A DNA stretch of 64,000 nucleotides from a virus: IMG/VR virus record IMGVR_UViG_3300008448_012223; one strand, 5' to 3'. Each line of letters begins with the position of its first letter. Positions within the stretch are counted from its first letter, which is position 1. A model generated the notes under the pieces. That model saw only the letters and a program-made list of their open reading frames with translations, was not told where the DNA came from and ran no database searches. Below are positions 29,712 through 54,764 of this stretch, piece by piece. The position numbers and the translations under genes were made by a program.

Positions 29712-29786
29712 GATAATACTCCTTCTAGAGTAAAGGTCACTAAAAGGAAAAAGGGGAGCTATATGCTCCCCTTACTAATTAACTAC

Positions 29787-30083: not shown

Positions 30084-30147
30084 GAGCTGTTCTCTTGGAC
30101 TAGTGTTCACAGGAAGGAAAAAAGGTGCATTGCTGTCCCTCTGTTAT

Positions 30148-30987: not shown

Positions 30988-31166
30988 AGTCTCCTCCTTG
31001 GAGATAAGTTCATGAAAGAAAAAAGGGGCCTCGGGCCCCTCCTTACCTACTCTACTTATTCAGCTCCGCTCACTCACGGCGGAGCTTCTCTATTTCCTGC
31101 CTTACCTGTTCCATCTCGTGGCTTTACGCCGCAAGATCAATAACAGGAGCGGGGCGGCGTTGTTGA

Positions 31167-33137
31167 TCAGTTATGACTGATCACATAGACGCGCTTAGCA
31201 TCCGTGTAATCTTGATAGTCTTTTGGTAGAAGAGACCGTCCTACCTTAAGTGGCTCGCCCCATGCGTCGAAGGCACCATAGAGATCCCCGTTTGCTCCGA
31301 GGAGCACCCGATTGACGAAGGCATTATAGAGATACCCGTCTGCTCCGAGGCGCACCCCTTTGATGAACCACATCTTAAGAATCTTCTGGGCTATCTCTTC
31401 GTAGAGAAGAATAACCGTGGGCTCTCGTTGCCCTAGCCCAAGTGCTTCGCAATTATCGAAGCACAGATCCCCGGACTGGTTAATCCAGGTCCAGGACTGC
31501 GCTATTATTCCTGAATTATCCTCGAATATGAGGAATCCGGAGTTGCGCTTTTCTTGCCCATACCAAGCGCAGGTTTCCCCAGCCCCGTCTGGGTGCTGGC
31601 AACAGTTAGTATATTCACCGAGGAAGAGCCCTCGCGTATCCTCCCGGGGGAGGAAGTAGGCGCGGATTCCATCCCGGGTAGCATCAATCCCCGAAAGGAA
31701 ATCTGGTATTTGTAGAGAACGTATAAAACGCCCCTCGTAGTAGTTGTAATCCCGCGCAGATACACCCCAATTGGCGCACTCCAGGGCAAACCCCTGGTGG
31801 TTAATACTTGCGTACTTACGTGTCTTACATACCGTCACCAGTAGACGGAATGGCAGAGAGCGCTCCTCCACGCTCAGTTTGTGCCAGACTCGGCATATTA
31901 AGCCGAGTTCAGAAAATGAGGTGGAGCGCTGGCGTAGGCGCTCCCCCTGTGCGAATAGGAACTCGCTCAATCCCTGCCCGCCGAGGGGTAGCCAGTAAGT
32001 GGCGTCATGCTCGCTGTAGCCGAGCTTGGCCATCTTAGTGAGCCACTCCTCAGAGCGGCTTCCGAAAGTTGTTACTAATGGGACGAGGTACTCTGGAGGA
32101 TTCTCCCGTAGTAGCAATAGCTTATTAGCTACTGCTACCTTCAGGGTGGGTATATACCCCTCCTCCCCAAATATAGTTTCTTCGTTCTCTTTAAAGGCTT
32201 TGAGCAAAGGGCGCTCAATAGCCCAACTAAGTTCCCCGTACAATTTACGGAGGGCTAGGCGCTTGTGGCCATTAAGCCATAAGTACTGGGCTATGGCCGT
32301 GCGCCCCGAGTGGCACACCTCATTAAAGCGCTGCCAGAAGGCAGCGATGCGTTCGGTACGGGAACGACGGCGCGCCCGATCCCACTGTCCCCCCTCCTCT
32401 TTCCAGAGGACCCCAGCAAGGGCTCGGAGGTCTGGGCGGGACTTGTACATAGTTCCCAGCCGTACGGCTAAAGATTTGGGAATCTCTGTGTTATATTTCC
32501 ATGTCCGCGCAGCTGGGATTAGATCCCATACGTTACCAATGCGGGTGGGAACAGACATATGAACCAGTACCCGCTTAACCCAAATGGGTAAGCGGTTATA
32601 GTTTGGGGTAAGCGCTACCCTTAACACTTTACTGTGATCCGGTTGGTAACCGGAGTTCCATACCCGCCCAGGGGTGCGGACATCCTCCCATAGAGGGAGG
32701 ATGCGCTTGACCTCCCACCAGTACTTAACACCTAGATCTACTAAGTGTTCAGCCAGCTGAGGAGTTCTTAGCTCCTCGAACCAAACCCCTTCTTTCTCAT
32801 AAGAGAGTCCGATACCCTCGTTTAAACGAAGGTATCGGATAAGGCGCAGGCGCACCATGTGCGCCTCCTTTGCTTCCTCCAAGCTTACTTCTCGGGTGAT
32901 GACCCGAGAGATAATCCAGCGCTGGGAGCTGGATAGACTATTCCACTCCTCCCACTCACTCCAGGGAGTATGTGGATTGAGTTCCAGCCACTGCCGGAAC
33001 TCAAGTAGAACGTTATAAAGAGAGAAATAGTAGGGAGCGGGGTCAGCTCCTAACTCAGCTTGTGCCTCCCACTCAAGGGAGTAGGCAAGCTGAAGGCGAG
33101 CCGCCTTGGTTTTGGCGGATTTGATAAACTTAGACAT
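31167..33137 (-). CDS. PcfJ-related GNAT-like domain protein
   Basis: C-terminal LG.YTNCCQH..GAGE.CA..G....GFL.F....IIAQSW.W.....L.FDN.E pattern. Confidence 0.6.
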   Translation of the reverse strand: MSKFIKSAKTKAARLQLAYSLEWEAQAELGADPAPYYFSLYNVLLEFRQWLELNPHTPWSEWEEWNSLSSSQRWIISRVITREVSLEEAKEAHMVRLRLIRYLRLNEGIGLSYEKEGVWFEELRTPQLAEHLVDLGVKYWWEVKRILPLWEDVRTPGRVWNSGYQPDHSKVLRVALTPNYNRLPIWVKRVLVHMSVPTRIGNVWDLIPAARTWKYNTEIPKSLAVRLGTMYKSRPDLRALAGVLWKEEGGQWDRARRRSRTERIAAFWQRFNEVCHSGRTAIAQYLWLNGHKRLALRKLYGELSWAIERPLLKAFKENEETIFGEEGYIPTLKVAVANKLLLLRENPPEYLVPLVTTFGSRSEEWLTKMAKLGYSEHDATYWLPLGGQGLSEFLFAQGERLRQRSTSFSELGLICRVWHKLSVEERSLPFRLLVTVCKTRKYASINHQGFALECANWGVSARDYNYYEGRFIRSLQIPDFLSGIDATRDGIRAYFLPREDTRGLFLGEYTNCCQHPDGAGETCAWYGQEKRNSGFLIFEDNSGIIAQSWTWINQSGDLCFDNCEALGLGQREPTVILLYEEIAQKILKMWFIKGVRLGADGYLYNAFVNRVLLGANGDLYGAFDAWGEPLKVGRSLLPKDYQDYTDAKRVYVISHN

Positions 33138-33203
33138 AGAATTGTCCTCCTGGGACTAAAATTCACCAGAAGAAAAAAGGACCTTATCAAGACCCCTTAA
33201 TTA

Positions 33204-33347
33204 TTATTTATTTACCTCCTCACAGAGTGAAGATTTCAGGTCTCCGTAACAGGCCTCTACGGCTATTCCGCCAACAATGGCGGAGCAGCTAAATGTTAAT
33301 ATTATGATAGAGACAATATAGACGATATCGTACTTACCTAATTTCAT
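33204..33347 (-). CDS. Micro membrane protein family A (47 aa)
   Basis: MKLGKYDIVYIVSIIILTFSCSAIVGGIAVEACYGDLKSSLCEEVNK; AGGAGG RBS. Confidence 0.75.
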   Translation of the reverse strand: MKLGKYDIVYIVSIIILTFSCSAIVGGIAVEACYGDLKSSLCEEVNK

Positions 33348-33415
33348 AATTCCTCCTAGGATTAATAGATCACTAGAAGAAAAAAGGGGATAAAGCATAT
33401 CCCCTTTTAATTAAA

Positions 33416-33931
33416 TTACTTTAACCAGCTTAAGTCTAGCTGGTAATAGAGAAGTTTATCACTCTTCTCTATTGTCTCGAAGAGACCATAGAGGCACTCC
33501 TCGAGATGATCTCGGTCCACCCGGCTAGTCAGACCGAGCCCCTCCCAGGTAGGCTGAGGGGGTTTAATCTCTACCAAGCAGGTCTTGGTGATGCCAACAG
33601 CCAAACGAAGACTGTCGGTACGGCATAACTGGCCCAGCTTCTTATCTACTGCCTCGGCGTCGGTAGTAAGCTGAAGAGCCCATAGCTCGCCAGTATACTG
33701 GCGGACTATTACGTCCACCTTGTATACCCGGTCTAGTACTCCCCAATCATCAGTGGGGACGAGACGACGAAGGACACCGCCTCGGGAGTTGAGCTCTAGA
33801 TGTTCACCCGCGAGATCACGCGCCTGGTTATACAGATAACCCGTATTCCATATCTCTCGGGGCTTCGGACACTCGAAGCCTAACTCTTCAACTAGGCGTA
33901 ACACTACTTTCTCCATCTGTAAACCATTCAT
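33416..33931 (-). CDS. Possible PD-(D/E)XK-like nuclease
   Basis: D...LDRVYKVDVIV...ALQLT spacing. Confidence 0.45.
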   Translation of the reverse strand: MNGLQMEKVVLRLVEELGFECPKPREIWNTGYLYNQARDLAGEHLELNSRGGVLRRLVPTDDWGVLDRVYKVDVIVRQYTGELWALQLTTDAEAVDKKLGQLCRTDSLRLAVGITKTCLVEIKPPQPTWEGLGLTSRVDRDHLEECLYGLFETIEKSDKLLYYQLDLSWLK

Positions 33932-33996
33932 GATGTACTCCTAGGATTATAGATCACTAGAAGGAAAAAGGGGCCCCCGCCCAGGCCCCTTAACTA

Positions 33997-34131
33997 CTAC
34001 TCTTTGTCTACCTCACATAGTGAAGACGGTAGAGGTCCATAACAGGCCTCATGGTATACTCCACCAACGATAGCGCCGCATACGCCAAGGATGACGGCAA
34101 CAGCCGCTATGTAAGATAATGTGTATTTCAT
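33997..34131 (-). CDS. Micro membrane protein family A (44 aa)
   Basis: MKYTLSYIAAVAVILGVCGAIVGGVYHEACYGPLPSSLCEVDKE. Confidence 0.75.
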   Translation of the reverse strand: MKYTLSYIAAVAVILGVCGAIVGGVYHEACYGPLPSSLCEVDKE

Positions 34132-34200
34132 AATCCCTCCTAGGGTTATAAGATCACTAAAAGAAAAGGGGCCTTACCAAGGCCCCTTATTTATTATTTA

Positions 34201-34344
34201 TTATTTATTCACCTCCTCACAGAGTGGAGACTTCGGGTCTCCGTAACAGGATTCCACGGCTACTCCACCAACAATGGCGGAGCAAGTAATTGTTAGGAAT
34301 AGCATACATACAATGTATGCTATATCATACTTATCTAGCTTCAT
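34201..34344 (-). CDS. Micro membrane protein family A (47 aa)
   Basis: MKLDKYDIAYIVCMLFLTITCSAIVGGVAVESCYGDPKSPLCEEVNK. Confidence 0.75.
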   Translation of the reverse strand: MKLDKYDIAYIVCMLFLTITCSAIVGGVAVESCYGDPKSPLCEEVNK

Positions 34345-34404
34345 ATATCCTCCTAGGAGTTAACTTCACTAGAAGAAAAAGGGGCGCAGTGCCCCTTCTA
34401 TCAA

Positions 34405-34725
34405 CTACTTAACAAGGATGTAGTTGATGTTGAACTGGAGTATATCCTCCTCCGTCCATCGTTCTCCTTCTGCCAGCCGCCGGGGGCTGACAAATAAACA
34501 TACAATATACTCGGCCCCCGAGGGCACCTGTACCCGATTCACGGGTATGTTTACTCCGAGACGGGCGGAGAGGAGCTCCGCCGTAGAGAGGTGTCCGAGA
34601 GCACTTGTCCACTCAGTAGTGGAGAGGAGAGCGCGGGTCTCTTCCTCTGAAATACAAGTACTAGTGATAGCCCCACCCGGCGTGGTAGGGTAAAGGGAGT
34701 TTGGGAAAGAATTAAGAACGTACAT
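34405..34725 (-). CDS. acrIII-1: AcrIII-1 (DUF1874) viral ring nuclease, anti-type III CRISPR
   Basis: Y.LNSF N-terminus, SALGH45.ST..LLS, NR64V, R83LAE86G; spacing matches SIRV1 gp29 H47/R66/R85/E88 as recalled. Confidence 0.85.
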   Translation of the reverse strand: MYVLNSFPNSLYPTTPGGAITSTCISEEETRALLSTTEWTSALGHLSTAELLSARLGVNIPVNRVQVPSGAEYIVCLFVSPRRLAEGERWTEEDILQFNINYILVK

Positions 34726-34794
34726 AATCTTCCTCTAAGGTTTAAAGTTCACTAGAAGAAAAAGGGAGCATTACACTCCCTAAATTACCCCAAG

Positions 34795-35139
34795 TTACTT
34801 GATATAACCTGGGTTCCAGTTAATTACTGGTTCGACGACGAACTCACCGCCGAATATTACCATCTTAGACCAGACTATGCGTCTGGTTGGTAATGCAACC
34901 TCATCGTAGTAGTTTGGGTCGTCTTCGACGTACCACCAGGGGCGGTGGGCTTCGACGTTCCCGTCGAAAGCAAGGATGAAGACTGACCCGTATCCTCCAC
35001 GGGCGAAGTCCTTGGCCACTGCCAAACTGCGGCTGGCATAAAGAACTTCGCTACAACGATCCCAATCTAAGTGATCGTTGGTATGACCACGATAGGCGTA
35101 GTCATACTCCCTGGGAAGATGTTTATATATACTCATCAT
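34795..35139 (-). CDS. ADP-ribosyltransferase-like protein (R-S-E type)
   Basis: YRG...YASRSLAVAKDFA..G.VF...DEV. Confidence 0.5.
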   Translation of the reverse strand: MMSIYKHLPREYDYAYRGHTNDHLDWDRCSEVLYASRSLAVAKDFARGGYGSVFILAFDGNVEAHRPWWYVEDDPNYYDEVALPTRRIVWSKMVIFGGEFVVEPVINWNPGYIK

Positions 35140-35214
35140 AGGTGTTCTCCTGTGGACTAGTGTTCACAGAAAGAAAAAAGGGGCATTGCTGCCCCTTAAT
35201 TATTATTTATCTAC

Positions 35215-35358
35215 CTATTTATCAGTCTTACACATTGACAGTGCGGGGTAGTCGTAGCAGACAACCCGGTAGAAGGCGCCAAGAATTAGACCATTCACGC
35301 CGAGCACGAGTGCAGCAGCCACAATTAAACCGAGTATATCGTCTTTGATAGATTTCAT
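35215..35358 (-). CDS. Micro membrane protein family A (47 aa, divergent)
   Basis: MKSIKDDILGLIVAAALVLGVNGLILGAFYRVVCYDYPALSMCKTDK. Confidence 0.7.
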   Translation of the reverse strand: MKSIKDDILGLIVAAALVLGVNGLILGAFYRVVCYDYPALSMCKTDK

Positions 35359-35422
35359 AATGTCTCCTCCTGGAGATTATAGATCACCAGAAGAAAAAGG
35401 GGCCCTGCCCAGACCCCTTTTC

Positions 35423-35560
35423 TTATCTCATGTTTATATACTCCTGACGCACAGTCGGTATATTCTGGCCGTCTCCACGTTCTGGTAGCTGGCTGGCCAA
35501 TACCGTCATGAAGATAATAGGAATTACTACGACGCTGATAATTAGAGCTAATGATTTCAT
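35423..35560 (-). CDS. 45-aa membrane micro-protein
   Basis: MKSLALIISVVVIPIIFMTVLASQLPERGDGQNIPTVRQEYINMR; AGGAG RBS; first cassette of the array. Confidence 0.65.
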   Translation of the reverse strand: MKSLALIISVVVIPIIFMTVLASQLPERGDGQNIPTVRQEYINMR

Positions 35561-35646
35561 ATACCCTCCTAGGGTTATAGACCACTAGAAGGAAAAAGGG
35601 GCCAATTGAAGGGCCGGGTGGGGGAGGGGATATACCCTATAATACG

Positions 35647-39786: not shown

Positions 39787-40036
39787 TTTACTAGCTCTAG
39801 CACGCCTACTGAGTCGAGCTCATCTTACATGGGCCGGCCCGTATCTCACAGTAGACTACGAGGGAGTGATAATCCGTGTAGGTCAGGGGGAGTTGAGTAT
39901 AGATACCAGTAATCATATGATGATTAATTGCAATCACAAGGAGGATAGTAGACCAGATGTTTCCAGCGTGCAGGATAGGAGATATGGTGAGAAGCATATG
40001 CCCCAGGATACCCGACGGGCCTTTCTACACAGGTAG
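39755..40036 (+). CDS. Hypothetical protein
   Basis: 93-aa ORF overlapping both neighbours. Confidence 0.4.
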   Translation: MMVKLIRFLSSLLALARLLSRAHLTWAGPYLTVDYEGVIIRVGQGELSIDTSNHMMINCNHKEDSRPDVSSVQDRRYGEKHMPQDTRRAFLHR

Positions 40037-40214
40037 TCCTGATACTATGATTAATGGTAGACCCGCCATACGAATAGGAGACAAGTCAGTGCCGGGCCCT
40101 GCTATCACTGGCAGCCCGCGCACATTTATTAATGGCATACCCGCCGTGAGTATTATAGATCAGGTCTTCTGTGGCGTTATAATAACAGGTAGTGAGGATA
40201 CCTTCATAGACTGA
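39957..40214 (+). CDS. PAAR-repeat baseplate spike-tip protein
   Basis: PACRIGD, TGSPDTMINGRPAIRIGD, TGSPRTFINGIPA, CGVIITGS..TFI. Confidence 0.88.
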   Translation: MFPACRIGDMVRSICPRIPDGPFYTGSPDTMINGRPAIRIGDKSVPGPAITGSPRTFINGIPAVSIIDQVFCGVIITGSEDTFID

Positions 40215-41636: not shown

Positions 41637-41905
41637 CACTCTCAGACTATAGACTCACATACGAGATAACATCACTACCGACTATAATATTCGCTGGGAT
41701 GACCGCTGCGGATGAGCCATTTCACTTCACTCGCTTTGAGGTGCCCCCCATTAATGGTCCCATCGAGTGCCGCTTTTTACTATTCGATAAGTCAGGTAAT
41801 TTGATAGAGTTATCTAATCAATATGTGCACAGTACTGCGCTAGTGGCTACCTGCAATATAGTGCCACTGCGTATGATAGAAAAGCTAGTTAAACCAGATC
41901 CATAG
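41630..41905 (+). CDS. Hypothetical protein
   Basis: 91-aa ORF converging on the giant gene. Confidence 0.55.
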   Translation: MVTLSDYRLTYEITSLPTIIFAGMTAADEPFHFTRFEVPPINGPIECRFLLFDKSGNLIELSNQYVHSTALVATCNIVPLRMIEKLVKPDP

Positions 41906-44900
41906 AGTAACTCTCGCTCTCATTTCGATAGGCCATACTATTAGGACGGTCTACTGTTAGGTCGCTCATATAGAGGGCGTCATAGGTGTCGTATTCATCA
42001 CCATTGAATATAGTTTGTACGAAGAACTCAACAGGGGAGCCCGCGTCATCTACGACCTCGGTTTCAGCATTATCCTCTCGTTCCATGCGAGCTCTATTCA
42101 TACTCTCTTGAGTAGCGCGTATACCGGCGCTAACAGCATCTAGAGCTACGGGGGCTACACTACGCTGCATACTGACCTCTAACCCACGATGGAGTAACTT
42201 ATTTACGAAGCCTGCTGATACGAGACTCAATGCCCCCGTGATGACGTTGCTAGCTACATTACGCAGGCCCGCGAATGGGTCAGAGTCTATTGTGGGAGCC
42301 TTACCGAGTGTCTTCTCTACGAATGGGTTGATGATATAGCGGCCTGCCAGTTGAGCTGTTGCGCCAAAGGCTATCTCCTGTGCTAGTAGCATACCGACAC
42401 CAATTGTATAGTCCTCGTGTAGTTGACCTGCTAGGCGTCCCTTGAATCCCATACTCATCAGAGTACCTGCGGCGAAACGTCCCAACTGGTTACCTGCTGG
42501 GGCGCTTACGTAGGCCATAGCGCCTAGCATATTACCCATAGTCTGCTGCATTGCCTCGGGGCGGGCTCCGCCACTACTAATCATATCTCCTGCCAGTGCC
42601 ATTAGGGGGAATAGAAGTACATCCATTATATTACCGGCAGTATTGTTAAGAATAGGTAGATCATCTGCTACGCGCAAGAGGGGGCGGTCTGGTCGCGGGC
42701 GAGGATCCAGTGGGTCCACATCAGGAGGTGAGCCGGCCAGTAGATAATCGCGCCGACGAGCTGCTAACTCCTTAGCCCTATCTGGGGCGACACCCATATC
42801 CTGTAGTAGTTTTATATAGCGCGTATCGACGTCACGGCTCTCATAGTCTCGTAGCTCCTCTACTAGTCTATCGGCTGTATCTACCTGCTGACCTAGTGCT
42901 GTAGCGCGAACATAAGTAACCAATCGACTAGTGGCTATCTCATCTGTGAGAACTGTCTTCTGAATAAACTCTATTATCTCCTTATCAGCTGGGCTAGGGG
43001 TGCCGCTATTGAGTAACACACTAAAGATATCTGCTATTTCATAGCGCTTACCATCAGCGTGAGTGAAGGTATCCATAAGAGACTCGAGGGCCCGTGCTAC
43101 CTGCTCAGGCTCGTTTATCTTCCCGGCCGATACAGCCTGTAACAGTGATCTAACTAGCGGACTAGCTCCTAAGCCAGTAGGGTCACCAGCGGCAGTAATC
43201 AGATCCTGACCGAGTACATCCTCTAGTTGTCCTCCGTATAGTGTGGAGCGGGTACTATCATTAATAGCGAAGCGCAGTAGTTTACTGCCATCAGTATTAG
43301 CCCAGAGTGATGCACTCTCCCTACTACGTAGGAAGTTCATAGCTAATATACGCTTAGTATTCGTACCCATATCCTGGAAGCGCTTATCTCCTATTACATC
43401 ACGAGTGAAGTTCTGGAACTCTTCTACTTCTATCTCCATCTCGGTGAGGCCATTAGTGATGCCACCTGCTATGAGGGCATCTATCTGAGCGGCCCGCGCG
43501 GGCTCGCTATTTATGTAGGTCTCCACACTCTCTGCTAGGCCTCTACCAGAGCTAATGGGGTTACCTGCCTTATCGGTTGGCATAGCCCGCTCAAAGGCGA
43601 ATACAGCCGCCATACCTACTAGGTCCTGTCGTAGTTGATAGCTGGCTATGAGGGCGCGGCTATGAGTACCTATCTCATCTCCTCGCAGTACACTCAATCG
43701 ACGAGATAAATCTAACTGCTCAGCCTCTCCAATGGAGAGTTTAGTCAGTAGATCATTAATCTTAGAGTCCTGAGCATCATTAGTAGCTGATGCCAGTAAT
43801 TCTTTATGAGCTTCTATATACGCATCTAACTTAAATAGAGGAGTTATAGACGGTAGTAGTTTACTCATATCATCCACTACACGCTGGCGCTCCACATCAT
43901 CGACGGCATCTACAAAGCGCTTATGGTACTGCGATAAGTTCTCTAGGAACTCAGCGCCACCCATCTTAGGCTTAATAGCATCCCGCAGCATTTGTTGTAT
44001 CTCTTGCAGGAATGTGCCTACCTCGCCTACCTCTGTCCTACTCTGGCGGGCCAGTCTCTGTATATCCGCTATCTTACTATCGGCCTCTAGGTTAGCATCA
44101 CTCGCGCTCATGCCACTTGCTATACCCTGATCGATTAGTATACGACGTATGTCATCCTGTAGGGCCGAGCTATTCTCTAGTGCGTGTGATACAGCCATGA
44201 TGGGGGAGCGCTCGTATAGCATACCCACGGTAGTATTATATGTCTTACCGAGGATTACACTACCTGCCTGACCCAGTACCTTCTGCATCATATCAAATTG
44301 ACCGCCGCTCATGACACTACCATCAGCGCGCTTCATGTACTTACTGAGATTATCGCGAGCATTAACAGCAGTTAATTTATGCAGGAAGTCATATGCCTTC
44401 TCTTCCTGATCGTTACCTGTAGCGCTCAGGATATCATGTAGACTAGCCCGCACGAATGGCCCTATATCAGGATTATTAACGAGATCGGTTAGTATGTTCT
44501 GGTCTGTAGAGGTAGATAATCTATTAACTATATCAACTGCACTATCGGTTCTACTCTGCTGTATTAACTCTAATAGGGATTCGTGAGCTGGGTGTATACG
44601 CGCGTATACATCCTCCATCATACCGAAGAGACCGCGGGCCTGTTCTACTAGTACCAGGGCATGTTCTATACCTCTCTGTTCCAGCATACCCTTATCTAAT
44701 TTCATATAGCCCGCTACCCAGCTATACACTGAGTCGGTATACTCATTCCAACTAGCATTAGTGGTTACCTGCTGTATAGTATCCAGTAGAGCACTGGCAC
44801 GCGTCTCTAAATCGCTAGCTTGCTTCTCTAGAATGGTACGCTTAGCGGGATCAGCAGCCTGAGATGCCATCTCCCGCCGCTCCTTAGCGCGTTCCAGCAT

Positions 44901-47900
44901 ATCATCGCGCTGCAACTTCATCTGAGAGTAATTGAAGAATATAGCGCTGAAGGTATCCCCGTCGAAGTCTCCTAGGTTACTGGCTATAAAGCTGATGGGA
45001 TTAAGTAGAGTCAATGACTTATTACGAGTATCATCAAAGAAGTTAAAGCCACTGCCAGTCAGGTCTCGGTATATGTTATTGATACTATTGAGTGTATCTA
45101 ATCCGAACACCAGCTTATCGAGATGGGTGTTCCCAGGGGGCGGGCTACGTTGAATCCAGGCTCTCGTTAACTCCAGCTCAGTGAAGAATATACTCATATC
45201 AGCCTGCAGAGTACTATTCATTATGAATAATGAATCGCGCGCTGCACGATTAGCCATAACTGGATCTAGTTCCATTGCATAGGCGGCGTTTGCATCACTT
45301 ACCAGCTTCCTATACTGAGTTATGAGAGCCACGCCTCTATTATGTAAATCAGTGCCCCGCGGGCTCTTACCTTCTAAATACGTATCTACAGCAGAGGTTA
45401 CGTCATTAATAGTTCTCTCTAGACTATCTAGTCTAGTAGAGAATGTATTCAGCATCTCAGCACCATCCTTACCACGCGTATCGCTGAAGAAGGATAGGTC
45501 TATGGGATTCTTACGTGCACGACCCTGTAGTAGATCCAGGTTATCAAACCTATTACCTAATGCATTAGTGTCAATGTAGATCCGCATATTATCAGGTATG
45601 ATAGAGCGGGCCGGGCCCTGACTACCTATCATGAGCCCAGAGATAATAATAGGTAAGTGACCCAGATCTCTATACTTATGAGTTTCAGCTCCAGGCAGAG
45701 ATTCCAGTATTGTGCCCATCTCGGCTTCACCTAGAGTAGATACCAGAGAATCCCCGCTACCGCTGAATTTCATGCTACTGAATCTATCCATCTCGGCCTT
45801 AATTTCTATCTCTAGATGAGCGTATTCAGCTGCCTGTAAACCAGGAGCCAGTTTTTCTATACCGGCTATCCTACTCTGGAAGTTCTTACTTTTATCTACT
45901 ACTGTCTCCAGCCCATACATGCCCGCTATACTGAGTCCCTCGGTTATAGCATATATCTGCTGTTGTATTAACCTACGACCAATTCTCTTATCACCTGATT
46001 GGCCAATAACAGACAGGTTATTCTTGAGATGGTCTCCTAATCTAGTAAGTATCTCCTCTCGTGTCTGACTACCTCGCGTACCGAAGCGCTCCATAGTGGC
46101 CTCTGCTAGTACGGCGCCACGCACAGGTACATACCAGCTAGCGGCCCCTACGCCAGTAGTACCTGTCACGCCTATTTTATTACCAGTGATAGGCTGCAGA
46201 TATGCGCTCGCCAGGTCATTATAAACGCGGGCCTCATAGGTGCTATTGAGTTCCTGGAACCTAGTCAACTCCTGTATCTGGAAGTCACTGAGGCCCTCTA
46301 GTTCAATAGTAGTCCTCGAACTAGACTCAATGGCTACCTTCTCGAAGATATCACGTACTGTACTACCGGGGGCCAGCATAACCCATTTATCTACTGTAGC
46401 AGCAGCTATCTCATTCTCGTGGCTACCGAACTGAATACCTGCTATTCTCACATCTTCAGGACTCAGGATAAATCCCCTCTCCTTAATAGCTGTATTGAAT
46501 ACAACGTTATTTCCCTCTATACGGAAGGAGGGAAACTCATAAGCTATACGACGAAGATTCTTCTGGCCCATTGACTGCACGGTAGCTTCAGTGGCCTCTA
46601 CACCCAGTACTTTATCTCCTGCTAGACGCCAGCGGGACGCATGGGCATATATATCATTCTTCAGGACACGAAGTGACTGGCGTACTACATTACGTAGAGT
46701 ATCTCTATCAGTCCCCGCAGGTTGGCCCATCCATGTCGCTATCTCATCAAGTATAGTATGAGTAACATTAGTAGTATCAGGGCCCGACCCTCTAGTATAC
46801 GACACCATGTCAGTATCACTGGCACTCTCGAGTAGAGACAATGCAGTGTGGAACTGCCGGTATCGCTCGCGTAGATTAGTTATATCGCTTAGTGGGGCCC
46901 GCGCATCGTTATACACTCCTAGTAATATCTCTCCTAGCGTAGAATTAGCATGGAAGTCTAGACCAGCCAGGTCATACATAGGAATATCATCCACCGCCAT
47001 CTTATTGGGGTCTGCCCCTATAGCCATCTTCATGACGCCAAGGATAGCCCTACGCATACTATCAACACTACCATCACGCTTGAATTTATCCACGTTAGCC
47101 ATGAAGGGACTAGATACTATATGCTGCATTTCTAGTTGCGCAGTGTCCTTACTACTCAATGGCACCTTAGAGCTACTACCCATCACGGCATTATATAGCA
47201 CTACATAGCGAGAGTAATTACTCAATCTATCGAGCATAACGGCCACGTTTTCCTGGCCTACGCTTATCTCATCTGCCTGCGTAACGCCTGCTATAACGCT
47301 CATAGCCGCATACGCATGACGAGATATACTATCGCTACCAGTCACTGGCGTAGTATTGAGCTCTAGGGTATTATTAAGTGACATGAGCTGCATCATAATC
47401 TCTAGGTTACCGGCTATAGCAGCGCGCTCAAAGCCGCGACCCATAGCCCCAGTATCTACATAACCCCTGCGCGCTGCATCTGCTGCATCTACTATCAGAC
47501 CTACCTTATTAGATAATGACCCACTACTAGTTCCACTACGCAGGGCTGTCATTATCTCTGATATATCAATGGCCCCTAGAACAGGACTCTGTAGTCTATT
47601 AATAGCACCGTCGCTCCCGCGTACTAGCTTCCTACCTATTTCGAGATGAGGGGAGCCATCTCCTAGCTTATCACTCTGCATAAGTTCCAGCATAGTAGAC
47701 ATATAGAGGTCACGATAGTAATTACCGAGCCGCCCCTGCGCTGCCAACTGTGCTATTTCTATATAGACAGTGTCTATATTGATATTGCTATTATTACTAA
47801 AGAGACGCGAATCAGCTATGGAAAGGAGAGCGGCCGCTATCTGCTGATCATTCCGTTCTAGTACCCCCCGACGAAATAGCTCCCCACCATTATAGGTAAG

Positions 47901-50900
47901 TAGGGTGGCCCCGTGATTGAATGCGTAGCTCTTCAGGTTAGTGGGGCTGACTATATACTGGATGTCCTCTATCTCGAGGGCACTATGGTAGCCCCCTTGC
48001 TGTATAGTGGGGAACACCTCACTACGCATAATATCCTCGCTCAGGAACACAGGGACTATCTTAGCCAGACCGCGCTCCGCTTCTACCCTTCGAGAGCCAC
48101 CTTCAAGTAGAGTGCGTAGGAATTGTATCTGTACCTGCACTTCATTAGTAGCATCGCTACCAGTCAGCCTACTAACCTGTAGTAGCTGCTCAATAGCGTA
48201 CTCGCCGCGTATACCGGCTGCGGCACTAGTAGCCATAGCGGCCCCCATATTAGGATTACGAGATGTACTCTCTATCTGGCCTAGAAATACGCGCATCTCA
48301 CTACGACTAGTGATAGCCTGCTTACGGCGTCCCTCTCTATCTAGTAGATAGTAGCGTTGTTCTCCCTCATCGAATACAATACGGTCGTCGCTACTCACTA
48401 CTATATTATCGAATGTCCAGTCCCGCCCCAGTAGACTAGCCTTACTACTCTTAGTAGCCTGATCTAGGAAGCCACGTCTTACCCTATGTAGTGGGTTAGC
48501 ATACGCGTAGTCACTATAGGCCCCCTCTAGCGCCATAATCATAACAGTAGGGCGGGCCCGTCCAGAGCCTATCAATCCCCGCTCTCTACTAGCGAAGAGC
48601 TGAGATTGCACTATAGTAGCGCGGAATAGCTCAGCCAGTACGCTATCATCCTCAGTGGGTATATCCTCACTATCAATACCCAGGCGGTCGGCCAATTCAT
48701 AACGTATAGCCTCTAACTCTACAGCCGCCTCACTACTCATAAAGCGCGATATTCTACCACTGAATATAGCACCATAGCGATAACCATCATCTACGATACT
48801 ACTATCTAGTCCACGTGCCTCTAACCCCGCGCGCAGGTCAGCTAGGTATGCGTCTTGATACGTGCTGCCCTGCAGTACATCTACATCGCTACCACCGTAG
48901 CGGGCCCTATACCTAACGGGAGTCAACTCAGGTATGACCTTACCGGTATCAGTGGGACTAACTAGCTCCAGCACCTGGGTGTAGCTCTCACTTATATCCA
49001 TGAGGGGGCGCATGCCAATCACGTTCTTGAGACGCTGAGGCACCTGATCCGGCTTATTGGGATCAAAGAAGAACCTGAGTAGGTTATCGCCGCGGGCATC
49101 GAACTCTGCTTCTAGCAGGGAGCGGTCTATACCCAAATGACTCACTGCCTTCATGTATTCGCTCAGCTCATCTCGCCGTATGATATCCCCCACACCAGTA
49201 CTGCGTATGATGGATAGGTCGAAGACCTCACTGGCAATGGCACGGCGAGATAGAGGTAGCACATTATTATAGGCAGTGAAGTATTGACTCTCATCAGTAG
49301 CCGTAGGGCTCACGTTACCTTCAGCAACTCGTACAAAGAGGAAGTCATCGCCTACACCGAGGTCAGATACCGGACCTATAGGCAATGGGCTAGCAGTATA
49401 AGCAAAGGCACTCAGGTTACTAAAGGTAGTCTCATTAGCCTTAATACGACGTAGCGCAGCATTAACTATAGATATACCGGCAGGCTGCCTACCTTGACCA
49501 AAGCCATAGGCTACTAAACGATTACTTGCTTGTGTAGAACCATAATTACGAGCCTGCGTAGGAGTGAGGAACGCAGCGAATGCGCTATCATGTATCTCCT
49601 TTAACCTCTCGCGCACATCAATATTATAACGACTATCATTCTGGGATTCGATAAACTTGAATAACACATCAGCGAACATGGGGCCCTGATCCATAATCTC
49701 ATATAGCTTATTAGCGGCAAGATTAAGGGCCCCCCTACGGTGTGCCTCTAGGTCTATTATAGGCTGGCCTTTCTCATCTATAGACCGCGCATAGGTAAGA
49801 AATATGTTAGATAGTTCCTCGAAGGCCACTCTACGACGGCTATCAGTACGAGATATACTCGCTAGGTCTCGTATACGATCTAGATCGGGGTCACTAGAGT
49901 AGAACAAGGAAGTCAGGTTACTGAGGCCCTGCTGTACTCTACTAGTACCCTCGTCCGTGGTTAGATCGAGACCACTCACGCCCAGTAGCTTCTCGAAGAA
50001 GTTCATGGCACTCTGATACTGAGCGCCGGAGTCACGCTGTACGGCCTGGGCGGCGCGTATATTATCAGGGCTATAGTATCTCTGGTACTCTATAAGTGGG
50101 GCCCGCACTAAACGAGTAGTCTCACTCTCTAACGCAATAGAGCTCATGAGGCCCACTACTACATCCAGTGGATTAAGGCGCAGGCGTCTACGAGGATCCA
50201 GACCCACACCACGACCATCACGTTCTATAGCCAGCTCCATACGCATTGTGCCAGTATTGAACAGCTCAGCTGACTCTATCTGACGACCCCCGCTTATATC
50301 TATGAAGGCAGCGGGCCCCCGTCCACTAGCGTTCTTATAGGCACCCCATCTATATACACGCTGAGTAGGTAGGCCCTTATTGAGTGTTAGAGTAGCACCC
50401 TCTAGATTAAGACCATCGTAGTCTCGCTGTATGCCTATGACCTCAGAGCCGACAGCCGCATTAACTCTCTCTATTTCATTGATTAGGTCCAGTATGGCTC
50501 TTCTATCTACTCTATTACTATACATAGACCTACGGTCCCGCCCACTATAATGAGTCTCACCTATTCGTTGTATTCCCAGGGAGCTCTGTAATTTATAGAA
50601 GGCTCGCGCGTATTCTCTATTCTCCTCATCACGCTCCTCACTAGAGAGACTGAGAGGGCTTGTCCCCCCCACCCTATCGTAAATTATATTGATCTCCTGG
50701 TTAACGAGTTGACGGCTCAGGAGATCATCACTATCTGCCAAAGAATTAAGACCATAGTTACTAGATCCCTGGCTACCACCCAGGATATCGAAGGCTTGAC
50801 GATTGTCTATATTCTGCATGCCCAGCCCGGCCCCTTGATTTATGGCGTCATTCTCGTAGGTCGCTAGGTATGCCTTAACGTGGCTGCGCGGTACTGCGGT

Positions 50901-52577
50901 CGGCTCTATATTACCACTAGCTATAGCTAATAGCTGCCGGGCCATCCGCTGACGGCCCTCGAGATCTCCACTATAGAAGCCATATCTATCTAATACGTTA
51001 GCCATATCACTAACACCAGTGCCCCGGTTCTCTCTAACCCATCGAGCCACGTCGTAGTTAGAGTCAGATAACTCAGCAGCTAGTCTTTGATTACCCAATA
51101 GTAAGCGACTCATAGGGTCCTGTACACCCTCTCGATAAGTATGTATATCTACACCTATACGAGCGCGCCCCTCTATAGCTAGATCTAATACCTTAGCCTG
51201 AAGTTTAGAGTACTCCTGCTCCTTAGCCTCTAGATACGCTTGGTAACCAGATAGTGTTCTCTCCGACTCAGGACTCTCCCCCATCTCCCCCTTAAGCTGA
51301 CTTGCCATCAGGGACTTATCGTGCTTGAGCAGGAACACCTGATTGAGTACCATATAGAGACGGCCCGTCTTACCATCGATAGTAGGCGTCTTAGTCAGCT
51401 CATCTACGTGGCGGCCTAGCGCAGTATTAATATCACCAGCACCACCTATATTATCCTGCCCCGTGAATAGAACTCTATCACCGCCCTCGAGTCTATCCAT
51501 GACATCGCGGGCCTGTAGATATAATTTATCAGCCCGCGTCATAGTACCAGGCAGTATACCTCTATCGGCATCCTGTATTTGACTATAGGTCAGGTTAGTG
51601 CGTATAGTCCGCGTGAACTCTACATTAGAACCTGCCTGTTCTAGCGATTGTCCTAGTGGCCGCGTCACGTTCATCGTACCTATGAGAGCGGCCCTATCAC
51701 TAACGAAGAACTTAGGGTGATTACGTCTATCAGCCCATTGGATATCTATATCTACATTACTCCCGAAGCGGTCCCGTAGATAGGACAGCCGTCTATAAAA
51801 CATAATGTTGGGGCCCAGGATATCATAATTCTTACGAGAGTCCCCATCAGTCTCAGATGGGGCAGCCATACGAACTACCACACGGCCCCTCTGGCCACTA
51901 CCAGCCATTCTCTCTACAGCTTCACCCACCATATCTATAGCGCGCTCATTCTGGAACTGATAGATGTCTATACGCAGTTCTCTCTCTGCTGTATCTACTA
52001 GCGCGGCAATAGGTAGTAAGCCGGGCCGTACATTATAACCATCATCAGATAGTAGATCCAACATGCTAGAGCGATTCTCTAGTAGTAGGCGGCGTTCATC
52101 GTCTATGCCCTCTAGGTTAGACTGCATAGTGAGCTGATCTCGCTGGGCCATCCAATTAAGCATATCATCAGTCTGGCTACGGGCAGGAGTAGCTGTACCC
52201 CCCATACCTGCCATGTATTCGAAGTGCTCCTGACGAGCGGGGCCCTCCATACTATCCCACAGACTCGAGATAGCAGCTCGACTACTACTAGTATCAACTA
52301 CCCTATCATAGAAAGCATCAGCTAGCACCATCTCCATAGAGGCGTCGGTACCAGGCGGTATAAAGTTAGGGTCCATTAATACTTCTAGAGGATTATAGCC
52401 CTGTAGTAATCTACTGCGCGTATTCTCAGGGATACGGTAGAGGGCATTCCAACGAGCACTGTCATTAAATCGATTACTAGAGAATAGTGAGCTATTGATA
52501 TCCATCAGTAGAGTACAAAACCTATTAAATATAGCTATAGCTGAAAAACTGCCTACTTTAGCGGGCAGTGGCCTCAT
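41889..52577 (-). CDS. Giant protein: tandem PLD-like domains plus single-chain two-barrel RNA polymerase (virion RNAP candidate)
   Basis: NHPKFFVSD...IGTMN and SHVKAYL...GSSN...NQE; beta-like VQIQFLRTLLEGGSRRVEAERGLAK...IQYIVSP; beta'-like WIQRSPP...LNPISFIASNLGDFDGD (DFDGD at 44955-44969). Confidence 0.8.
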   Translation of the reverse strand: MRPLPAKVGSFSAIAIFNRFCTLLMDINSSLFSSNRFNDSARWNALYRIPENTRSRLLQGYNPLEVLMDPNFIPPGTDASMEMVLADAFYDRVVDTSSSRAAISSLWDSMEGPARQEHFEYMAGMGGTATPARSQTDDMLNWMAQRDQLTMQSNLEGIDDERRLLLENRSSMLDLLSDDGYNVRPGLLPIAALVDTAERELRIDIYQFQNERAIDMVGEAVERMAGSGQRGRVVVRMAAPSETDGDSRKNYDILGPNIMFYRRLSYLRDRFGSNVDIDIQWADRRNHPKFFVSDRAALIGTMNVTRPLGQSLEQAGSNVEFTRTIRTNLTYSQIQDADRGILPGTMTRADKLYLQARDVMDRLEGGDRVLFTGQDNIGGAGDINTALGRHVDELTKTPTIDGKTGRLYMVLNQVFLLKHDKSLMASQLKGEMGESPESERTLSGYQAYLEAKEQEYSKLQAKVLDLAIEGRARIGVDIHTYREGVQDPMSRLLLGNQRLAAELSDSNYDVARWVRENRGTGVSDMANVLDRYGFYSGDLEGRQRMARQLLAIASGNIEPTAVPRSHVKAYLATYENDAINQGAGLGMQNIDNRQAFDILGGSQGSSNYGLNSLADSDDLLSRQLVNQEINIIYDRVGGTSPLSLSSEERDEENREYARAFYKLQSSLGIQRIGETHYSGRDRRSMYSNRVDRRAILDLINEIERVNAAVGSEVIGIQRDYDGLNLEGATLTLNKGLPTQRVYRWGAYKNASGRGPAAFIDISGGRQIESAELFNTGTMRMELAIERDGRGVGLDPRRRLRLNPLDVVVGLMSSIALESETTRLVRAPLIEYQRYYSPDNIRAAQAVQRDSGAQYQSAMNFFEKLLGVSGLDLTTDEGTSRVQQGLSNLTSLFYSSDPDLDRIRDLASISRTDSRRRVAFEELSNIFLTYARSIDEKGQPIIDLEAHRRGALNLAANKLYEIMDQGPMFADVLFKFIESQNDSRYNIDVRERLKEIHDSAFAAFLTPTQARNYGSTQASNRLVAYGFGQGRQPAGISIVNAALRRIKANETTFSNLSAFAYTASPLPIGPVSDLGVGDDFLFVRVAEGNVSPTATDESQYFTAYNNVLPLSRRAIASEVFDLSIIRSTGVGDIIRRDELSEYMKAVSHLGIDRSLLEAEFDARGDNLLRFFFDPNKPDQVPQRLKNVIGMRPLMDISESYTQVLELVSPTDTGKVIPELTPVRYRARYGGSDVDVLQGSTYQDAYLADLRAGLEARGLDSSIVDDGYRYGAIFSGRISRFMSSEAAVELEAIRYELADRLGIDSEDIPTEDDSVLAELFRATIVQSQLFASRERGLIGSGRARPTVMIMALEGAYSDYAYANPLHRVRRGFLDQATKSSKASLLGRDWTFDNIVVSSDDRIVFDEGEQRYYLLDREGRRKQAITSRSEMRVFLGQIESTSRNPNMGAAMATSAAAGIRGEYAIEQLLQVSRLTGSDATNEVQVQIQFLRTLLEGGSRRVEAERGLAKIVPVFLSEDIMRSEVFPTIQQGGYHSALEIEDIQYIVSPTNLKSYAFNHGATLLTYNGGELFRRGVLERNDQQIAAALLSIADSRLFSNNSNINIDTVYIEIAQLAAQGRLGNYYRDLYMSTMLELMQSDKLGDGSPHLEIGRKLVRGSDGAINRLQSPVLGAIDISEIMTALRSGTSSGSLSNKVGLIVDAADAARRGYVDTGAMGRGFERAAIAGNLEIMMQLMSLNNTLELNTTPVTGSDSISRHAYAAMSVIAGVTQADEISVGQENVAVMLDRLSNYSRYVVLYNAVMGSSSKVPLSSKDTAQLEMQHIVSSPFMANVDKFKRDGSVDSMRRAILGVMKMAIGADPNKMAVDDIPMYDLAGLDFHANSTLGEILLGVYNDARAPLSDITNLRERYRQFHTALSLLESASDTDMVSYTRGSGPDTTNVTHTILDEIATWMGQPAGTDRDTLRNVVRQSLRVLKNDIYAHASRWRLAGDKVLGVEATEATVQSMGQKNLRRIAYEFPSFRIEGNNVVFNTAIKERGFILSPEDVRIAGIQFGSHENEIAAATVDKWVMLAPGSTVRDIFEKVAIESSSRTTIELEGLSDFQIQELTRFQELNSTYEARVYNDLASAYLQPITGNKIGVTGTTGVGAASWYVPVRGAVLAEATMERFGTRGSQTREEILTRLGDHLKNNLSVIGQSGDKRIGRRLIQQQIYAITEGLSIAGMYGLETVVDKSKNFQSRIAGIEKLAPGLQAAEYAHLEIEIKAEMDRFSSMKFSGSGDSLVSTLGEAEMGTILESLPGAETHKYRDLGHLPIIISGLMIGSQGPARSIIPDNMRIYIDTNALGNRFDNLDLLQGRARKNPIDLSFFSDTRGKDGAEMLNTFSTRLDSLERTINDVTSAVDTYLEGKSPRGTDLHNRGVALITQYRKLVSDANAAYAMELDPVMANRAARDSLFIMNSTLQADMSIFFTELELTRAWIQRSPPPGNTHLDKLVFGLDTLNSINNIYRDLTGSGFNFFDDTRNKSLTLLNPISFIASNLGDFDGDTFSAIFFNYSQMKLQRDDMLERAKERREMASQAADPAKRTILEKQASDLETRASALLDTIQQVTTNASWNEYTDSVYSWVAGYMKLDKGMLEQRGIEHALVLVEQARGLFGMMEDVYARIHPAHESLLELIQQSRTDSAVDIVNRLSTSTDQNILTDLVNNPDIGPFVRASLHDILSATGNDQEEKAYDFLHKLTAVNARDNLSKYMKRADGSVMSGGQFDMMQKVLGQAGSVILGKTYNTTVGMLYERSPIMAVSHALENSSALQDDIRRILIDQGIASGMSASDANLEADSKIADIQRLARQSRTEVGEVGTFLQEIQQMLRDAIKPKMGGAEFLENLSQYHKRFVDAVDDVERQRVVDDMSKLLPSITPLFKLDAYIEAHKELLASATNDAQDSKINDLLTKLSIGEAEQLDLSRRLSVLRGDEIGTHSRALIASYQLRQDLVGMAAVFAFERAMPTDKAGNPISSGRGLAESVETYINSEPARAAQIDALIAGGITNGLTEMEIEVEEFQNFTRDVIGDKRFQDMGTNTKRILAMNFLRSRESASLWANTDGSKLLRFAINDSTRSTLYGGQLEDVLGQDLITAAGDPTGLGASPLVRSLLQAVSAGKINEPEQVARALESLMDTFTHADGKRYEIADIFSVLLNSGTPSPADKEIIEFIQKTVLTDEIATSRLVTYVRATALGQQVDTADRLVEELRDYESRDVDTRYIKLLQDMGVAPDRAKELAARRRDYLLAGSPPDVDPLDPRPRPDRPLLRVADDLPILNNTAGNIMDVLLFPLMALAGDMISSGGARPEAMQQTMGNMLGAMAYVSAPAGNQLGRFAAGTLMSMGFKGRLAGQLHEDYTIGVGMLLAQEIAFGATAQLAGRYIINPFVEKTLGKAPTIDSDPFAGLRNVASNVITGALSLVSAGFVNKLLHRGLEVSMQRSVAPVALDAVSAGIRATQESMNRARMEREDNAETEVVDDAGSPVEFFVQTIFNGDEYDTYDALYMSDLTVDRPNSMAYRNESESYSMDLV

Positions 52578-52996: not shown

Positions 52997-53427
52997 ACAT
53001 TCATCTAACGTACTTCCACCTAATAAACACTGAGTTATTCTGTAAGAATGCCGCGCTCCAGCGTATAGCCGACCCTCTGCTACAAATTGCCGGCAGTATA
53101 TTCCCTAGTGCTAGGTTTATAGTATCGCCGCCACCTGACCCCTATCTACCTGTTATTAAACATAACTATGTAGTTCAGGTGGCGCAGAACTATACCAAGT
53201 ACTATCAACTAGAGAAGTGGGTTATAATAGCTAGCGTCACTGGTATAGGATTGCAGGAGTTCATTCAGCAAGACGAATATATGCAGGAGGCCGCCTATCA
53301 AGCGGCGTCTAACTATATTCAGAATCAGAATAAAAAACAAAAGCAATCCCTAGAAGAAATGACTAAATCTTTAGAGAATATGAACTCTAACCCACTATCT
53401 GAGATTAAAAGACCCTCATTCTGGTGA
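52936..53427 (+). other. -1 frameshift extension of 52634..52996 (includes the 53179..53427 ORF)
   Basis: The -1 frame is open from 52909 to 53427; slippery heptamer at 52936-52942. Confidence 0.6.
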
Positions 53428-54764
53428 ATATGGAAGTACGCAATGCCCCCACGCCAGCAATACGCCGGCGCACTATCTACGCTATGGAGCACCTAGGCCT
53501 AGCCACTAGTTATCTATCTGAGGATGGTGGCTATAAACGAGCAGGTAAGCCTACCTACCAGCAGCTGAGTGCCTGGGATGAGGCAGCGCAGGTGGAGCCT
53601 ATCATAGCGCAGGGCCTCGACTCTATAGCACTGAGCGTGCTTAATAAGGTCGGGCCCTATCAACACGGGGATAAACGCATTAAGAAGTTCATAGATGACC
53701 AACTACGCAATAGGGCCAAGACATGGATATCTCATTGCGTGAAGTCTATTATGACGTATGGCTTTAGCCTAAGCGAGCAGATATACGCCCACGGCACGCG
53801 TGATAATATGCCGGCTACGGTGCTAGATGACATAGTTAATTATCACCCACTACAGGTCATGCTCATCACTAACGACAATGGCCGTATAGTGGATGGTGAT
53901 ACAGTAACAGCTAGTCAATACAAGTCGGGCTACTGGGTGCCCCTGCCTCCCTATAAAATAGGAGACCCCCCTAAGAGAGTAGACGTGGTAGGTAGTCACG
54001 TACGGCTCCCTAGTCACAAACGGCTATTCATTAACTACAACACTAAGGGCAATAATCCCTGGGGTACCAGCTGCCTCACTAGCGTGCTAGACTACTCTAT
54101 CTTTAAACGGGCCTTTCGAGATATGATGCTCATAGCTCTAGACCGCTATGGCACCCCCCTCATATACGTAATAGTGCCGCCCGGTAATACAGGCGTAGTA
54201 GAGGAGGCCCCCGATGGTACAGAGATAACCACTACTATAGCGGAACAGGCAGAGGACGCACTCCGGCGTCTGAGCACCGACTCTGGTTTAGTATTAACAC
54301 AGCTCAGTAAGGAGCAGCCGGTACAGGTGGGGGCCCTAACTACAGGTAATAACTTCAGTGACTCATTCGAAAGAGCCATATCACTCTGCGATAGCAATAT
54401 GCTAATGGGTATGGGTATTCCTAACCTACTGGTGCAAAATAGAGAGACTACCTTTGGTACAGGCCGGGCCAGCGAGATTCAACTAGAGCTCTTTGATGGT
54501 AAGATCAACAGTATATTCGATACAGTGATACACGCCTTCACTGAGCAGGTCATAGGCAATCTAATCAGGTTGAACTTCGACCCCGCACTATACCCACTAG
54601 CTAGCAACACGGGCTATATAACTCGTTTACCGGGGAGGGCCACTGATCTAACAGCACTAATAGAAGCCATTAAGCATATGCACGACATGGGCTTCCTAGT
54701 AGATGGAGATAAGGATCACATACGTTCCATTACTGGATTACCTGATGCCATTAGTTCTATATAG
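53424..54764 (+). CDS. Portal protein (Mu gp29/DUF935-like)
   Basis: IM.YGFS.SE.IY, DRYGTP, typical size, position before the protease/capsid genes. Confidence 0.8.
   Translation: MNMEVRNAPTPAIRRRTIYAMEHLGLATSYLSEDGGYKRAGKPTYQQLSAWDEAAQVEPIIAQGLDSIALSVLNKVGPYQHGDKRIKKFIDDQLRNRAKTWISHCVKSIMTYGFSLSEQIYAHGTRDNMPATVLDDIVNYHPLQVMLITNDNGRIVDGDTVTASQYKSGYWVPLPPYKIGDPPKRVDVVGSHVRLPSHKRLFINYNTKGNNPWGTSCLTSVLDYSIFKRAFRDMMLIALDRYGTPLIYVIVPPGNTGVVEEAPDGTEITTTIAEQAEDALRRLSTDSGLVLTQLSKEQPVQVGALTTGNNFSDSFERAISLCDSNMLMGMGIPNLLVQNRETTFGTGRASEIQLELFDGKINSIFDTVIHAFTEQVIGNLIRLNFDPALYPLASNTGYITRLPGRATDLTALIEAIKHMHDMGFLVDGDKDHIRSITGLPDAISSI

Follow-up and report, generated by a model that had tools for sequence, protein, structure and literature searches.

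The giant open reading frame (ORF) of 3562 aa on the minus strand of IMG/VR virus record IMGVR_UViG_3300008448_012223 (a stretch of 64,000 nucleotides, all of it analysed here and called the window below) very probably encodes a highly diverged RNA polymerase of the cell-type, two-barrel kind. By its sequence, the source of the window is a Fukuivirus, a relative of Ma-LMM01 and MaMV-DC; its DNA in this region shares about 95% identity with these Microcystis phages and their relatives. The ORF is the ortholog of Ma-LMM01 gp080, and we use that name for it throughout; the sole naming of the Ma-LMM01 protein is that of a PLD-domain protein (UniProt A0A7J4). As the best explanation overall we slightly favour a single-chain polymerase that is borne in the virion and acts by the steps set out below. 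For the viruses of toxic Microcystis blooms, the Ma-LMM01 and MaMV phages serve as the principal models; published accounts deny them an RNA polymerase, and their temporal control has been left unexplained (PMC9927357, PMC4103541, PMC5780444). The genome of a close relative is stated to have no RNA polymerase (PMC9927357), and a review names no known means of late transcription in Ma-LMM01, from which a late sigma factor is absent (PMC4103541). Our literature searches, subscription papers not covered, turned up no publication that identifies a polymerase in Ma-LMM01 gp080 or in gp064, whose 1693-aa ortholog lies in the same window. One, probably two, phage polymerases would make the open question of temporal control directly testable in cultured phages.

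An earlier, sequence-only reading had proposed the polymerase from short motifs. All the motifs it quoted are found, in the order claimed, in a frame that does run from 41889 to 52577 (-), and DFDGD lies exactly where it had been placed (aa 2537-2541, nt 44955-44969). Beta-like blocks occupy aa 1344-1361, 1482-1497, 1503-1508 and 1539-1545, and beta-prime-like blocks aa 2130-2136, 2474-2480 and 2525-2541. The homologs available for comparison were 19 close proteins and 96 matches among representatives of 50%-identity clusters, falling into two clades; nearly all full-length members of the family have 3000-5400 aa. D1356, R1497, K1506, K1549, R2477 and D2537/2539/2541 are invariant in the 19-sequence alignment (21-47% identity). 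The acidic loop, as D-[FYWH]-D-G-D, is present in 96 of the 99 full-length homologs and in 3 of 99 shuffled sequences, and two motifs downstream of it recur in 77 and 75 of the 99 (2 and 0 when shuffled). Judged on these counts, the conservation is more than chance. The catalytic-type residues are invariant over about 90 clusters; the four beta-like residues are invariant in the close clade, with the corresponding basic residues recognisable in the distant one. In comparison with Ma-LMM01, both barrels show more synonymous than non-synonymous codon changes (24:7 and 5:1). Farther along the chain than the catalytic loop, two invariant blocks, LGKxYN and RDxIKxK, are placed as a bridge helix and a trigger loop might be, an assignment that we base on the order of the blocks and on the D-x-x-K motifs of YonO and gp66. 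Two members (L012 and L019) have N-D-F-D-G-D or L-D-Y-D-G-D in place of G-D-F-D-G-D, with all three Asp kept.

Structure prediction points to a beta-type double-psi barrel well upstream of this loop. The AlphaFold model of aa 1330-1590, made for the window's own protein from 42 alignment rows, has a predicted local distance difference test score (pLDDT) of 82.8 and a predicted template modelling score (pTM) of 0.71. All of its top 50 rows in a Foldseek search of the PDB are RNA polymerase chains, mostly second-largest subunits, with Pol III subunit 2 as the best match (E 3.1e-4, prob 0.99). A search of 48,161 chains that is independent of Foldseek again placed only polymerases in its ten best rows (Z 5.9-4.0), namely beta/Rpb2-type chains, two isolated beta-flap domains, the phiKZ non-virion RNA polymerase and QDE-1; crAss gp66 and designed double-psi barrels came next. 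Re-alignment spans the whole segment (model residues 1-255 against Rpb2 729-1025; Z 6.4, root-mean-square deviation (rmsd) 6.8, 197 aligned), and the top non-self matches in BFVD are poxvirus RNA polymerases. By eye, and within the structurally matched range, D1356, R1497, K1506 and K1549 correspond to E. coli beta D814, K1065, K1073 and R1106. Inside the barrel sits a beta-flap-like insertion, model residues 39-160 of which align with the isolated beta-flap chains 3tbi_B (Z 5.0, rmsd 3.3, 87 aligned) and 3woe_A (Z 4.9, rmsd 3.1, 86 aligned). We call the fold that of a polymerase because of the uniform identity of the hits, their coverage and the invariant residues at these beta positions; both the barrel and its flap insert stand at the level of a predicted fold. 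One homolog is read as two ORFs of 1471 and 2231 aa (L009:9383-20491) with the break inside the flap region, either a sequencing error or a real split.

The catalytic barrel, in contrast, we infer from R2477-x-x-P and DFDGD. The two-barrel claim of the sequence-only reading hence stands on fold prediction and fold search for the beta barrel with its flap, and on invariant motifs for the other barrel; the segmental AlphaFold and Foldseek check that it proposed yielded a beta barrel at aa 1330-1590 and no confident model with both barrels. Several results weigh against a polymerase. The structural Z scores are only middling (5-6.4) and the rmsd is high. Neither the catalytic barrel nor the barrel pair was obtained: a 1198-aa core model, built for a 48%-identical ortholog with 20 alignment rows, has pLDDT below 50 in the motif regions, and its fold search matched only helical bundles and no polymerase. 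Sequence and profile searches of the gp080 polymerase regions in Pfam, PHROGs and the PDB gave no significant polymerase. A 115-sequence profile of the catalytic block gave nothing significant against RpoB, RpoC, YonO, gp66, gp96, gp64 and 248 decoy ORFs (RpoC at E ~1), and the ESM Atlas gave no usable match for aa 1330-2900. The missing profile match and the large model without a polymerase match are what one would expect if the motifs were coincidental and gp080 were a structural or ejection protein joining a PLD enzyme to an unrelated acidic metal-binding loop. We find this very improbable, given that an independent stretch lying 1000 residues farther upstream is predicted to fold as a beta barrel with a flap, and that the invariant residues one would look for there are present in the right order.

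A different doubt concerns the substrate. Fold shows family and not substrate, two-barrel cores include RNA-dependent RNA polymerases (RdRPs) and PolD, host transcription appears sufficient in published data, and for a PLD fusion we found no precedent among transcriptases in the literature. The core might accordingly be real and make no mRNA, serving as a primase, as a template-independent or RNA-dependent nucleotidyltransferase, or as a processing partner of the PLD domain. We hold this to be improbable: gp080 has kept the three Asp, the arginine of R-x-x-P and the flap, each a feature of DNA-dependent RNA polymerases, and the phage encodes its own DNA polymerase and primase. A role of gp080 as replicative DNA polymerase was rejected for the same reason, the phage having its own. 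Also rejected was N4 as a structural relative, its virion RNA polymerase being of the T7 type and not two-barrel (PMC7824862); the N4 precedent cited in the sequence-only reading keeps its worth as a functional analogy and loses it as kinship. As to an N4-type palm core, the modelled segment of gp080 is of the double-psi type and the invariant motifs are of the two-barrel type, the rest of the chain having no confident model.

Besides the polymerase regions, gp080 has an N-terminal PLD-superfamily domain and C-terminal hydrophobic segments, neither of which the sequence-only reading had mentioned. The PLD half-sites are H287/K289/N303/E320 and H566/K568/N607/E628, all invariant. Pfam PLDc_2 matches the gp080 query at E 8e-5 with 22.9 bits, under the cut-off of 27, and is matched by 14 of 18 family members (best 5.7e-8); a strict pattern recovers both half-sites in 70 of the 99 homologs and in none of the shuffled ones. 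Since both half-sites are kept in the distant clade too, the PLD fusion is a family trait. As in other PLD phosphodiesterases (Nuc, PLD3/4, Tdp1 and poxvirus K4), there are two HxK half-sites per chain, each followed by a conserved Asn and Glu; gp080 differs from the superfamily in the fusion to a polymerase and in a second half-site without the motif Asp. Weak PDB profile matches of the region are to PLD4 and to a virion nicking-joining enzyme (E 0.045-0.11). From its conserved residues, the domain is probably catalytically active. Towards the other end of the protein, 80 of 99 homologs show a hydropathy of 1.5 or more somewhere in their last 450 aa, a level that is rare elsewhere along the chain; these segments are possibly membrane-inserting.

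Packaging of gp080 in the virion seems to us somewhat more likely than not. With the virion enzymes gp96 (Thermus phage P23-45) and gp66 (crAss-like phage phi14:2) it shares a gene in the structural module, huge size and a hydrophobic tail, and its silence at 1 h is likewise in keeping with them. The sequence-only reading had put the gene next to the head module, which is borne out by a Portal_Mu portal gene starting at 53424 on the opposite strand. In all 8 of the 8 relatives with flanks listed (judged by Pfam hits or shared gene order), the distant clade included, gp080 lies between PAAR and portal/capsid genes, across about 20% identity.

Other evidence weighs against packaging or against a cascade. 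The gene of YonO, the non-virion enzyme of SPbeta, is likewise close to terminase and portal genes, so that a head-gene neighbourhood is not diagnostic, and no virion proteomics for gp080 was found in the literature. In Ma-LMM01, log2 fragments per kilobase per million (FPKM) at 0, 1, 3 and 6 h are 0, 0, 7.3 and 8.5 for gp080 and 0, 1.6, 7.5 and 8.0 for gp064 (PMC5780444 Table S3), middle-class kinetics for both (PMC5780444). From 3 to 6 h gp080 mRNA increases only about 2-fold, compared with about 4- to 140-fold in the flanking structural genes, and thus fits a middle gene. gp064 is outside the 1-h early class (log2 FPKM 1.6 against about 5-8); it borders the 1-h early cluster gp054-063 without belonging to it, a poor fit to a simple cascade, with the sampling coarse. 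Moreover, sigma70-like promoters were predicted in silico for all Ma-LMM01 gene classes in the published analysis. We therefore regard the full two-polymerase cascade as tentative, with a chance short of even.

These data would also suit an active two-barrel polymerase that stays out of the virion and, in the middle phase, transcribes the flanking late structural operons as YonO does in SPbeta. The mRNA of gp080 is there at 3 h, and the capsid genes surge later, at 6 h; yonO, too, neighbours head genes; and Ma-LMM01 is without a late sigma factor, its late transcription unexplained (PMC4103541). The packaged or early enzyme could then be gp064, with its Arg-rich N-terminus and its place beside the early cluster, or the early genes could use the host polymerase, and gp080 homologs do occur in contigs where gp064 is undetected. 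Nevertheless, a cytoplasmic late enzyme has no need of giant size, hydrophobic C-terminal segments or a PLD head (YonO has only 839 aa, P23-45 gp64 only 616 aa), and low, flat mRNA is also possible for low-copy virion proteins. We consider such a non-virion enzyme unlikely. A third arrangement is suggested by the adjacent PAAR/baseplate genes, by the C-terminal hydrophobic segments and by the absence of an annotated tape measure in Ma-LMM01: a polymerase fused to a tape measure like P23-45 gp96, its helical C-terminal part forming tail ruler and membrane channel. The tail of MaMV-DH01 is 260 nm long, and at about 0.15 nm per residue the ~660-700 aa after the last polymerase motif are probably too few for a tail of more than 200 nm. 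No tape-measure or peptidoglycan-hydrolase family matched gp080. Other candidates for the tape measure are gp098 and gp120, and we judge the fusion quite improbable.

Packaged or not, gp080 is likely accompanied by a second single-chain two-barrel enzyme, gp064, as its motifs suggest. This protein has DADGD at aa 1367-1371 and conserved motifs of its own, basic as well as acidic; in the ESM Atlas its features match an RdRP-family viral cluster (score 0.95). The two proteins had been described as distinct, and they show no detectable sequence similarity (best BLASTP E 0.51); that both are two-barrel enzymes, as also claimed, is backed for gp064 by motifs and the cluster match, and for gp080 by the fold of the beta barrel. 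In loci L070 and L071 a gp064 homolog sits close to the gp080 gene, and L043 of the distant clade has a probable one. Such homologs turned up in 5 of the 12 contigs from relatives, of which many are incomplete, and in 1 of the 2 that are complete; one complete relative thus has no detected homolog, and the lack in contig G002 is not an established absence, PF05183 and single-protein searches of the relatives' contigs having missed the positive control as well. The pair is common, and we make no claim of universality. In L071 (27355-31016) a gp064-like polymerase appears as two consecutive ORFs, a beta-like one of 751 aa and then a beta-prime-like one, with a copy of the cassette described below between them, possibly a natural split into two subunits. 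The start of gp064 (window 26800-27224 (-)) consists of a hydrophobic stretch followed by a very Arg/Ala-rich segment, and the 1883-aa ORF of L043 starts similarly.

The closest precedent, absent from the sequence-only reading, is the pair gp96/gp64 of P23-45, in which a scheme of one virion and one non-virion single-chain enzyme is already known: gp96 is a virion RNA polymerase fused to a tape measure, gp64 is the non-virion polymerase, and both are single-chain two-barrel enzymes of one phage, as is probable here (bioRxiv 10.1101/2022.12.01.518664, PMC10770324). Like gp080, gp96 is giant, with DFDGD, hydrophobic segments and a gene in the structural module; like gp064, the smaller enzyme is encoded apart, in a group of small genes between which motifs recur. 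There is, however, no detectable sequence similarity between gp96 and gp080. The polymerase of gp96 is compact, N-terminal (aa 327-1124) and without a clamp, whereas the core of gp080 lies mid-chain, extends over ~1550 aa, and comes with a PLD head and a flap. P23-45 is a siphovirus of Thermus; the phage of gp080 is a cyanobacterial myovirus. The virion enzyme gp66 of phi14:2 (PDB 6VR4; bioRxiv 10.1101/2020.03.07.982082) is likewise a large single-chain two-barrel enzyme encoded in a structural block, and the gp080 barrel model aligns with it at Z 3.8 (rmsd 4.5, 91 aligned) over the barrel only, the flap not being aligned. It differs in belonging to podovirus-type Crassvirales, in its motif DFDID, its 2180 aa, the lack of a reported PLD domain and the lack of a second phage polymerase. 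YonO (PMC5467207), a late enzyme, resembles gp080 in having both barrels in a single chain and a gene close to head genes, and differs in its size and in having no PLD domain or hydrophobic tail; the YonO-like and RdRP-like enzymes have been described as having no flap (PMC7824862). The multisubunit beta/Rpb2 chains (cellular, poxvirus, phiKZ/AR9) are the best structural matches of aa 1330-1590, flap inside the barrel included, but they are separate subunits with 6-14% identity to gp080, and the phiKZ-type virion and non-virion enzymes are multisubunit. By analogy, gp080 would work most like gp96 or gp66; we do not class it with either family, and it is set apart from both by its PLD head, flap and long inserts.

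Under the virion-borne reading, the modules of gp080 would follow one another as a two-HKD PLD domain, a barrel of beta type bearing a flap like that of cellular enzymes, a catalytic barrel to which bridge-helix and trigger-loop elements belong, and a C-terminal domain of hydrophobic character. The protein would be made at a low level from mid-infection, as seen for the Ma-LMM01 mRNA, and a few copies would be packaged and would later leave the particle along with the DNA, while the hydrophobic tail engages the envelope. Independently of the host enzyme, it would then transcribe the genes that come first, those of the gp054-063 cluster next to gp064. In the phages that have it, gp064 might act on some later genes as a second polymerase, one of the non-virion kind. 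The PLD domain would most likely act as a DNA or RNA phosphodiesterase; one could speculate that it nicks or resects DNA to provide a single-stranded template, the kind that crAss gp66 prefers, or alternatively that it is a phospholipase used at entry. The broadest version, in which a widespread family (~90 clusters) of cyanophage-like myoviruses injects one polypeptide in which an active PLD nuclease is joined to a flap-containing two-barrel RNA polymerase and to a tail that inserts into membranes, with template preparation by the nuclease and a cascade running via a second single-chain enzyme and the hairpin cassettes, is doubtful in our view. If true, it would be a third independent virion polymerase design, whose structure stands between those of single-chain and cellular enzymes. 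To what is known of single-chain two-barrel enzymes, gp080 would add a fusion with PLD and a flap of the cellular type, which bears on polymerase evolution.

Table 1. Positions of the features discussed, in nucleotides of the window.
Feature	Position	Strand	Basis or remark
3562-aa ORF, ortholog of Ma-LMM01 gp080	41889..52577	(-)	annotated hypothetical
PLD-superfamily domain, aa ~172-700	50478..52064	(-)	Pfam PLDc_2; two HxK half-sites
Predicted beta-type double-psi barrel (DPBB-B), aa ~1330-1560	47898..48590	(-)	AlphaFold; Foldseek and VIA-align matches; motif comparison
Beta-flap-like (SBHM) insertion inside DPBB-B, aa ~1368-1489	48111..48476	(-)	structural alignment to beta-flap chains
Putative first segment of catalytic barrel, aa ~2125-2150	46128..46205	(-)	alignment; by-eye match to RpoC 345-355; loosely conserved
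Catalytic (beta-prime-type) barrel motifs, R2477-x-x-P and DFDGD	44928..45170	(-)	invariant sequence motifs
LGKxYN (aa 2776-2781) and RDxIKxK (aa 2865-2871)	43962..44285	(-)	pair of invariant motifs C-terminal to DFDGD
C-terminal hydrophobic segments, ~240 and 115 aa before the end	42168..42650	(-)	hydropathy
PAAR protein gene	39957..40214	(+)	Pfam; other conserved flank of gp080, gene order kept in relatives
Portal protein gene	53424..54764	(+)	Pfam Portal_Mu; conserved neighbourhood of gp080
Major capsid gene, gp086 ortholog	56599-57912		downstream of portal gene
1693-aa ORF, Ma-LMM01 gp064 ortholog, candidate second single-chain two-barrel polymerase	22143..27224	(-)	DADGD, Arg-rich N-terminus; annotated hypothetical
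Intergenic element, 19 copies	22056..35633	(-)	GC hairpin, T-tract, usually a second hairpin covering the Shine-Dalgarno site

The region around gp064 is further marked by an intergenic cassette, with 19 copies in the window against 0-5 matches in whole shuffled windows. Its second hairpin pairs the T-tract with the Shine-Dalgarno site. TAG is paired with CTA in 8 copies and TGG with CCA in 3, a trio that may go back to a single origin. An ORF of 44 codons or more follows 17 of the copies, mostly small genes, and one of them stands just upstream of the gp064 gene. Ma-LMM01 has 7 copies around gp063-gp067, and the same architecture with other letters is found in five distant relatives (L009, L013, L069, L070 and L071). 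The arrangement would suit a terminator that lies ahead of a start site, while read-through transcripts would be kept from translation. It recalls the shuffling promoter-stem-loop cassettes of T4-type phages. Genes preceded by the cassette are weak at 1 h in Ma-LMM01; we regard the element as a candidate terminator/promoter. Upstream of the gp063 ortholog, at 21766-21939, the window has three degenerate repeats of about 52-61 nt, and at the counterpart site Ma-LMM01 has 42-bp tandem repeats directly before its strongest early cluster; these repeats are candidate early promoters or a candidate origin.

A few observations concern other genes. Ma-LMM01 gp120 (L005:32619-41315) is a second giant, of 2898 aa, next to the terminase and without a D-x-D-G-D motif, and is a candidate ejection or tape-measure protein. 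A ferritin-family gene lies between the scaffold and portal genes in several relatives (L004, L069 and L070), and in L069 a gene of the Tad6 anti-defence family adjoins the giant gene. Finally, the window has two tRNA-Met genes within a duplicated block, at 10648-10720 and 11664-11736 (-).

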